A DNA stretch of 64,000 nucleotides from positions 273,245 through 337,244 of the forward strand of contig JAOADA010000001.1 in the NCBI GenBank assembly GCA_026417555.1, given 5' to 3'. Below are positions 27,129 to 27,410 of the stretch, piece by piece. Position 1 is the first letter of the stretch. The number at the start of each line of letters is the position of its first letter. A program made the position numbers and the translations under genes. This DNA is from Brevinematales bacterium (lineage in GTDB: Bacteria; Spirochaetota; Brevinematia; Brevinematales; Thermospiraceae). Under the pieces are notes generated by a model that saw only the letters and a program-made list of their open reading frames with translations, did not search any database and had not been told where the DNA came from.

Positions 27129-27153
27129 ATGTAGCCTCCCTTACTTTTTTATA

Positions 27154-27169
27154 TGCAAAAAGTGTGCCA
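27154..27169 (-). promoter_or_regulatory. Sigma-54 (-24/-12) promoter TGGCAC-N5-TTGCA
   Basis: The minus strand reads tttCTGGCACactttTTGCAtataaaaaagtaaGGGAGGctacatATG. GG and GC are separated by 10 nt, and the GC lies 26 nt upstream of the sigma-factor ATG. Confidence 0.7.
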
Positions 27170-27410
27170 GAAAAATTTTTTCTTCTAAAGTTTTGAAATA
27201 TAAGAAAATAATATCCTGAAAAATCTGCAAAATGTTTTTTGTGTGGAGCAAAAAGTAGCTAAGTCAGCGAAAAAGAGAAAAATGTATCATAATGACACAA
27301 GGTTTCTCCCTTTGAGGGGAAAAAGTGATTCTTTTTGTTCTGAAGAAGAACCTGAGGAAAAAGCAAATGATGATTGTTTGATTGTTTCGAAGGAAGGAGG
27401 CGAAAATACC

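Follow-up and report, generated by a model that had tools for sequence, protein, structure and literature searches.

The control of one sigma factor gene by another sigma factor, in which sigma-54 (RpoN) RNA polymerase transcribes a gene of the RpoS type, is described in the open-access literature for Borrelia only, and no sigma-54-driven rpoS-like gene was found reported there for any other organism. Leptospira is said to lack RpoS, the RpoN-RpoS pathway has been treated as "appropriated" by Borrelia (PMC6719511), and the main survey of sigma-54 functions lists control of sigma-S for Borrelia alone (PMC3162934). The same literature held nothing on rpoN in Brevinematales, nor on a sigma-54 promoter upstream of the homologous sigma gene of Treponema or Brevinematales. 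The present study concerns a 64-kb stretch of DNA from a Brevinematales bacterium (contig JAOADA010000001.1), referred to below as the window, in which a gene for a group-2-like (RpoS-like) sigma factor is directly preceded on the minus strand by an exact match to the sigma-54 (-24/-12) consensus and, further upstream, by a 17-bp palindrome. Judged from its sequence and conservation, the -24/-12 element (27154-27169) is likely to be a functional sigma-54 promoter and the sole promoter of a monocistronic sigma gene.

The rpoS promoter of B. burgdorferi has been validated experimentally and reads AAATTAAATTGGCACAGTTTTTGCATG (primer table, Burtnick et al. 2007, PMC1976401). Mapping placed its transcription start 14 bp 3' of the GC doublet, and the promoter lies 62 bp from the start codon; changing the GG doublet to TT abolishes activation, and the activator Rrp2 needs no DNA upstream of the promoter (PMC1976401). 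The 16-mer core of the B. burgdorferi promoter, TGGCACAGTTTTTGCA, and that of the window, TGGCACACTTTTTGCA, are identical at 15 of 16 positions, the difference being one base of the spacer. In both organisms, which belong to one phylum, the -24/-12 element stands directly upstream of a short group-2-like sigma gene whose product has no region 1.1, and in both the leader is short. There are also differences. Rrp2 activates in Borrelia without an enhancer, whereas the window carries a conserved palindrome 123 nt upstream of the -24 GG. In Borrelia the BosR sites TAAATTAAAT are located directly upstream of the -24 box, while no such repeat adjoins the -24 box of the window. Finally, Borrelia is a vector-borne pathogen and the organism of the window is a free-living, probably thermophilic member of the Brevinematales. 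As phylum, promoter and domain layout are shared, we infer the sigma gene to be orthologous to that of Borrelia RpoS. The locus is a further case of the known cascade from sigma-54 to an RpoS-like factor, and probably an enhancer-dependent one.

The minus strand upstream of the sigma gene, read directly, is tttcTGGCACactttTTGCAtataaaaaagtaaGGGAGGctacatATG. The -24 box TGGCAC (27169-27164) is followed by the spacer ACTTT (27163-27159) and by TTGCA (27158-27154), with the GC doublet at 27156/27155, so that the GG and GC doublets are exactly 10 nt apart. An earlier reading made from the sequence alone, here called the sequence-only reading, had pointed to this element upstream of the 316-aa sigma gene as matching the consensus at GG and GC with the required spacing. 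The element is present on the minus strand where that reading had placed it, and the match is exact and unique in the window. The distance given to the start codon needed correction, from 26 nt to 27 nt between the C of the -12 box and the A of the ATG. Exact matches to TGGCAC-N5-TTGCW are rare: the window has one compared to 0.04 expected from shuffled sequences, and a single exact match occurred in 4 of 100 shuffles. Matches with one or two mismatches are at chance level in the window (14 found, 13.6 expected).

Evidence for the promoter also comes from comparison of homologous sigma genes. With a rule allowing at most one mismatch to TGGCAC-N5-TTGCW and keeping GG and GC obligatory, the background was 13 matches in 1.62 Mb of fetched DNA (0.008 per kb). 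In the genome collection a match to this rule was present directly upstream of the homologous sigma gene at 11 of 15 Spirochaetota loci, whereas all 63 non-spirochaete loci (Bacteroidota, Gemmatimonadota and others) lacked one there. When spirochaete DNA alone was considered (722 kb, both strands, GC content 33-69%), 19 of the 27 matches were these sigma-gene promoters. The element is kept in all ten Brevinematia orthologues sampled, which share 50-89% protein identity, and in nine orthologues from Treponematales and Spirochaetales, although flanking sequence, synteny and GC content (33-69%) differ among all of these. In the individually fetched orthologues, both the close ones (L081-L085) and the more distant ones (L086-L089), it is located 41-57 nt upstream of the ATG, and only in L084 does the -24 box deviate, reading TGGCGC. 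The conservation among relatives that the sequence-only reading had proposed to look for was found, with the GG and GC elements intact in every Brevinematia relative sampled. Between genomes the flanking DNA has diverged, and the gene further upstream is variously pdxA, PFOR, trpC, UDP-glucose dehydrogenase or DJ-1.

Alignment of the 19 sites shows which positions have been kept. T1, G2, G3, C4, T13, G14 and C15 are invariant (100%), A5 is found in 18 and T12 in 17 of the 19 sites, position 6 is C or T and position 7 G or A, while the spacer is variable, the flanks are low in information and no -35 is conserved. This profile corresponds to the bases that sigma-54 reads. In a neighbour-joining tree the promoter-bearing sigma genes form one clade, the Treponematales orthologues included, and three of the four loci without the motif (L010, L032, L034) fall in another clade. 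The fourth, L001, is inside the clade and has the element in place at 5915 as TGGCATGCTTCTTGTA, with TTGTA, i.e. with GT for the GC doublet. These comparative data, together with the near-identity to the B. burgdorferi promoter, support the Borrelia-like RpoN-to-RpoS wiring that the sequence-only reading had proposed, and it is probable that the arrangement in the window is homologous to that of Borrelia and common to Brevinematia, Treponematales and Spirochaetales.

A 5-way alignment of close relatives contained a second invariant block, which the sequence-only reading had overlooked. It is a near-perfect 17-bp palindrome, TGTGTCATTATGATACA, located at 27283-27299 with its centre 123 nt upstream of the -24 GG, and it is a candidate enhancer (upstream activator sequence) for an activator of sigma-54. 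Its consensus is TGTGTCA-WWW-TGATACA. The exact sequence occurs once in the window, and three matches with up to three mismatches were found compared to 0.18 expected. The five close relatives have the palindrome with few or no changes, 121-124 nt from the GG, while its flanks have diverged. For the wider comparison a degenerate form, TGTNTCANNNTGANACA, was used with at most two mismatches in the 12 specified bases, giving a background of 0.033 per kb. Between -300 and -40 of the 19 promoters (together 4.94 kb) there were 18 matches, distributed over 15 of the 19 loci, against 0.16 expected. Across these 15 loci the palindrome is 74-240 nt upstream, and at four of them (L004, L006, L009, L083) it occurs in tandem, with the copies 40-42 nt apart.

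The window may itself have such a second copy in degenerate form. About 42 nt upstream of the palindrome is a conserved block, CAAAAAGAATCACTTTT (27321-27337, minus strand), which includes GAATCA, similar to the right half-site, and which has invariant columns A118, G120, C124, A125 and T127-129 in the 5-way alignment. At the corresponding place a second palindrome can be recognised in Thermospira aquatica. From this comparison the block is possibly a weak second activator site. Palindrome-like sequences were also seen about 60 nt into the sigma coding region in two relatives, TATATCATTCTGATACA in L083 (at 10062) and TGTCTCATTCTGATACA in L085 (at 3987), which could be an extra downstream site for a regulator; scans of the window with the 17-mer gave no counterpart.

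Taken by its position, its variability between lineages, its dyad symmetry and its tandem copies, the palindrome resembles an enhancer, and at 123 nt it is within the approximately 80-200 bp upstream over which a dyad-symmetric activator sequence of a sigma-54 promoter is sought. We lean towards the view, based on sequence comparison, that it serves as the binding site of an enhancer-binding protein (EBP). Its conservation suggests a mode of activation that is unlike that of Borrelia in being enhancer-dependent. Enhancer-dependent sigma-54 promoters of the classical kind, e.g. NtrC-glnAp2, share with the window the TGGCAC-N5-TTGCW core, A/T-rich DNA between enhancer and promoter, and 17-bp dyad activator sites approximately 100-150 bp upstream, often in tandem. 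The NtrC-type systems differ in having a metabolic operon as the target, where the window has another sigma factor. The half-sites differ as well: those of NtrC are TGCACC...GGTGCA, while those of the window are TGTGTC...GATACA.

Based on the rarity, conservation and geometry of the elements, we infer the following course of events for the binding of sigma-54 and its activator, the transcription start and the regulon. The sigma-54 RNA polymerase would bind the -24/-12 element as a closed complex, and an AAA+ enhancer-binding protein with its gene in another part of the genome would bind the palindrome as dimers, probably occupying also the weaker site about 42 nt further upstream. The activator would then oligomerise, loop over the A/T-rich intervening DNA and open the promoter at the expense of ATP. 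Transcription would start near 27141-27143 and give a leader of about 15 nt, and the sigma factor made would redirect RNA polymerase to a secondary regulon, probably one for stress.

The predicted start (27141-27143, minus strand; 12-14 nt downstream of the C of the -12 box) was derived from sigma-54 promoter geometry and from the position of the mapped B. burgdorferi rpoS start. The corresponding leader of approximately 13-16 nt contains only the Shine-Dalgarno sequence GGGAGG (27135-27140, minus strand), 6 nt upstream of the ATG, and is predicted to be unstructured (folding energy 0 kcal/mol).

Some observations weigh against the proposed sigma-54 cascade or limit how far it can be taken. 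Neither rpoN nor an EBP gene is encoded in the window or within 10 kb on either side of the sigma gene in eight relatives. The motifs GAFTGA and ESELFGH, the Walker A motif and the RpoN box were all absent from the six frames of the window. A hidden Markov model of the EBP AAA+ domain built from Gemmatimonadota seeds, and phmmer with E. coli RpoN (an approximate query sequence), were run against all open reading frames (ORFs) of the window and the loci, and the only spirochaete match was a weak AAA+ hit in L010. Two members of the family have a substitution in one of the otherwise invariant dinucleotides, TAGCAT in L098 and TTGTA in L001, which means that the element can drift; at these two loci the promoter may have lost strength or function, or may be under different control. 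Because the loci compared are phylogenetically related, nominal P values of about 1e-25 overstate the independence of the comparison, although we judge the qualitative result to be robust. Finally, as Rrp2 works in B. burgdorferi without an enhancer, an enhancer is not a given for a cascade of this kind.

The absence of the trans-acting genes from the inspected DNA could mean that the element is a relic in a lineage that has lost rpoN or the activator, and the single GG or GC substitutions in two other lineages are in line with such decay. The Brevinematia DNA inspected, in which neither rpoN nor EBP was found, amounts however to about 0.2 Mb in total, from several genomes of approximately 2-2.7 Mb each. 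Moreover, the element and the palindrome are intact in all the Brevinematia orthologues, down to 50% protein identity, despite randomised intergenic DNA and replaced upstream genes, and the preservation of both amid randomised flanks calls for ongoing selection. Loss of the system in this lineage is accordingly very improbable in our view. Still less credible, with hardly any weight left to it, is that the consensus match arose by chance. An occasional exact match in shuffled windows and the chance level of the imperfect matches would agree with this, but the element is in the right place and orientation and is kept at 19 orthologous loci, compared to a background of 0.008-0.011 per kb, so that the conservation data have effectively refuted chance already. 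Another possibility is that the housekeeping sigma-70 holoenzyme transcribes the gene from the stretch TATAAA (27153-27148) and that TGGCA...TTGC is the site of another protein. The sequence-only reading had stated that no -10 hexamer follows the -12 box and that no appropriately spaced -35/-10 pair is visible. The second statement was confirmed by a consensus scan, while the first was not entirely correct, as TATAAA, matching TATAAT in five of six positions, overlaps the -12 box. An A/T-rich, TATA-like stretch just 3' of TTGCW is in fact seen in many orthologues, and the protein carries the NCBI label RpoD/SigA, both of which would fit a sigma-70 promoter. In close relatives, however, the hexamer itself changes to AATAAA, AATTAA or TATTTA, and because TATAAA is not conserved the oversight leaves the conclusion unchanged. 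There is also no -35: TGGCAC is about 11 nt from the TATA-like stretch, too near to serve as one, and there is hardly any information at positions -11 to 0 upstream of TGGCAC. The bases contacted by sigma-54 are precisely those that are invariant, the element is non-palindromic, unlike a typical regulator site, and the scan of the minus strand gave no promoter of the sigma-70 type from the gene up to the upstream hairpin described below, the closest being at 27517-27489, upstream of that hairpin. Transcription from TATAAA thus appears highly unlikely.

The alternative that deserves most attention accepts the sigma-54 promoter as real and takes the palindrome for the operator of another regulator, e.g. 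Rex, a CRP/FNR-like protein or a Fur-family, BosR-like protein, with the EBP acting from solution in the manner of Rrp2. The left arm TTGTG is similar to the sequence with which Rex and CRP half-sites begin. The precedent of B. burgdorferi points in the same direction, as Rrp2 there activates rpoS with no need of DNA further upstream and the region of the rpoS promoter is bound by BosR, which is of the Fur family. Oxygen is also the strongest inducer of TDE0937, the Treponema denticola sigma gene discussed below. Operators normally overlap the promoter, however, and no palindrome site overlaps the -24/-12 element; a position varying from 74 to 240 nt and tandem copies about 40 nt apart are instead typical of enhancers. 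A 17-bp dyad of 6-5-6 form is furthermore the geometry of NtrC sites. A CRP-type reading of the palindrome was considered and rejected, as its spacer is N7 and not the N6 of a CRP site. An operator function is therefore a serious but clearly less probable explanation of the palindrome than the enhancer function that we prefer.

The sigma gene (26178-27128, minus strand; ATG at 27128-27126) encodes a protein of 316 aa (MCX7881860.1) that NCBI annotates as RpoD/SigA. Its source is a metagenome-assembled genome of Brevinematales, in which the contig that carries the gene measures 689.5 kb. The protein has Pfam regions 1.2, 2, 3 and 4 and no region 1.1. The NCBIfam model with the highest score is that of proteobacterial RpoS (rpoS_proteo, TIGR02394), at 254.9 bits against a cut-off of 378.7, and the RpoD models are all under their cut-offs as well (e.g. 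248 compared to 572 and 226 compared to 354). As the RpoS and RpoD scores are all below cut-off, the description "group-2-like" or "RpoS-like" is fair, while neither "RpoS" nor "RpoD" in the strict sense is. The classification as a group-2-like sigma gene made in the sequence-only reading agrees with the domains 1.2 to 4 and with RpoS being the best, though sub-cut-off, model. Proteobacterial RpoS has the same domain set, regions 1.2 to 4, but the window protein is not its equivalog, and rpoS of proteobacteria is not known to be sigma-54-dependent. What would mark a housekeeping RpoD/SigA was not seen, i.e. a model score above cut-off, region 1.1 or a sigma-70-type promoter, and the NCBI family label is probably misleading. 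The housekeeping rpoD was not found in the window, in which ORFs about 600 aa long encode MnmG, a carbamoyltransferase and a protein without a Pfam hit. The closest relatives of the protein are in Brevinematales strain NS (89% identity), metagenomic contigs (81-88%) and T. aquatica (74%), followed by other Brevinematia (50-59%).

The gene has as neighbours pdxA, a bactofilin gene, a class II aldolase gene and a small ORF without a Pfam hit. A strong hairpin (26134-26176, minus strand; -31.2 kcal/mol, z -5.3) begins 2 nt past the stop codon and is likely to be the end of a monocistronic transcript. The next ORF (25571-26155; 194 aa, without a Pfam hit) has a sigma-70-like promoter of its own, TTGAAA-17-TATAAT at 26073-26045 (minus strand). 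On the other side, upstream of the candidate enhancer, a terminator-like hairpin followed by GGUAUUUU (27408-27444, minus strand; -28.7 kcal/mol, z -5.05) would shield the enhancer and the promoter from upstream transcription, be it of the pdxA unit or of a small transcript. With strong hairpins on both sides and a separate promoter for the next ORF, the sigma gene seems to be an insulated single-gene unit in which the -24/-12 element is the only recognisable promoter.

Some further observations were made in the course of the work. The sigma-70-like sequence TTGACT-17-TAATAT at 27517-27489 (minus strand) is followed about 45 nt on by the hairpin at 27408-27444, and the region 27408-27517 (minus strand), which had no Rfam match, could correspond to a short RNA of about 80 nt that lies between pdxA and the enhancer, or to the end of the pdxA unit. 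A permissive Rfam search of 27100-27720 returned only enod40 (E = 0.08), which was judged meaningless. The only matches at Rfam gathering scores in the window are two adjoining tRNA-Val genes (anticodons GAC and CAC) at 7078-7238 on the plus strand. A weak match to the palindrome, TTTGTCAGTATAATACA (within 26042-26073, minus strand; three mismatches), overlaps the TTGAAA-17-TATAAT promoter of the next ORF and is probably due to chance. In L085 the gene call of 349 aa (3779-4828) starts approximately 140 nt too far 5' and overruns the -24/-12 element; the real start is an ATG near 3921 preceded by a Shine-Dalgarno sequence. The Leptospiraceae locus L010, whose sigma gene belongs to the promoter-less clade, has TGGCATAACGCTTGCA at 4507 (plus strand) and an EBP-like AAA+ ORF at 7152 (minus strand; E 1.5e-20 to the EBP profile) near that gene. 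Ten Gemmatimonadota loci (L017, L019, L026, L027, L052, L057, L058, L059, L064 and L076) have an EBP gene (ESELFGH..GSFTGA) 1.3-5.5 kb upstream of a sigma gene of about 290 aa and on the same strand; none of the ten showed a canonical -24/-12 element at 300 nt or less from the sigma gene.

A link to a demonstrated physiological response is provided by Treponema denticola. TDE0937, annotated as a sigma-70 family protein, responded to heat, oxygen and osmotic downshift with 2.8-, 21.8- and 14-fold induction, respectively, and was proposed to be a core regulator of the stress response; RpoS homologues were stated to be missing in T. denticola, and sigma-54 was not mentioned (PMC2965109). A TDE0937-type locus, L098, was recovered with the TDE0937 forward primer as an exact probe (20/20), the reverse primer matching in 19 of 20 positions. 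Its protein carries the signature of the window sigma family, at only about 45% identity to the window protein, and the palindrome TGTGTCATTTCAATACA is present upstream of the gene. The homologous -24/-12 sequence (at about 1062) is TAGCATGGTTTTTGCT; it is non-canonical, with TAGCAT, i.e. A for the first G of the GG doublet. Since the TDE0937-type locus belongs to the family, the family includes a sigma factor that is demonstrably induced by stress.

The comparative result is more interesting than the single locus, as both promoter and enhancer have apparently been kept across Brevinematia, Treponematales and Spirochaetales. We give about even odds to the view that the cascade is an ancestral module of the Spirochaetota (Brevinematia and Spirochaetia), with a 17-bp enhancer TGTGTCA-N3-TGATACA read by a conserved EBP and a general stress sigma factor of the TDE0937 type as the output, and that the enhancer-independent mode of Rrp2 in Borrelia is derived and simplified. 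For annotation, the present comparison indicates that a family of alternative sigma factors is labelled "RpoD/SigA" and that at least one gene call swallows the promoter. The palindrome provides a concrete DNA site with which the activator and its signal may be found, and the proposed regulation could account for the so far unexplained response of TDE0937 to stress in T. denticola, a genetically tractable species. In the Lyme disease agent the RpoN-RpoS pathway acts as the central switch of virulence, and a near-identical promoter in free-living Brevinematales, in termite-gut and oral Treponema and in other spirochaetes would recast this pathway as an old, phylum-wide stress module.

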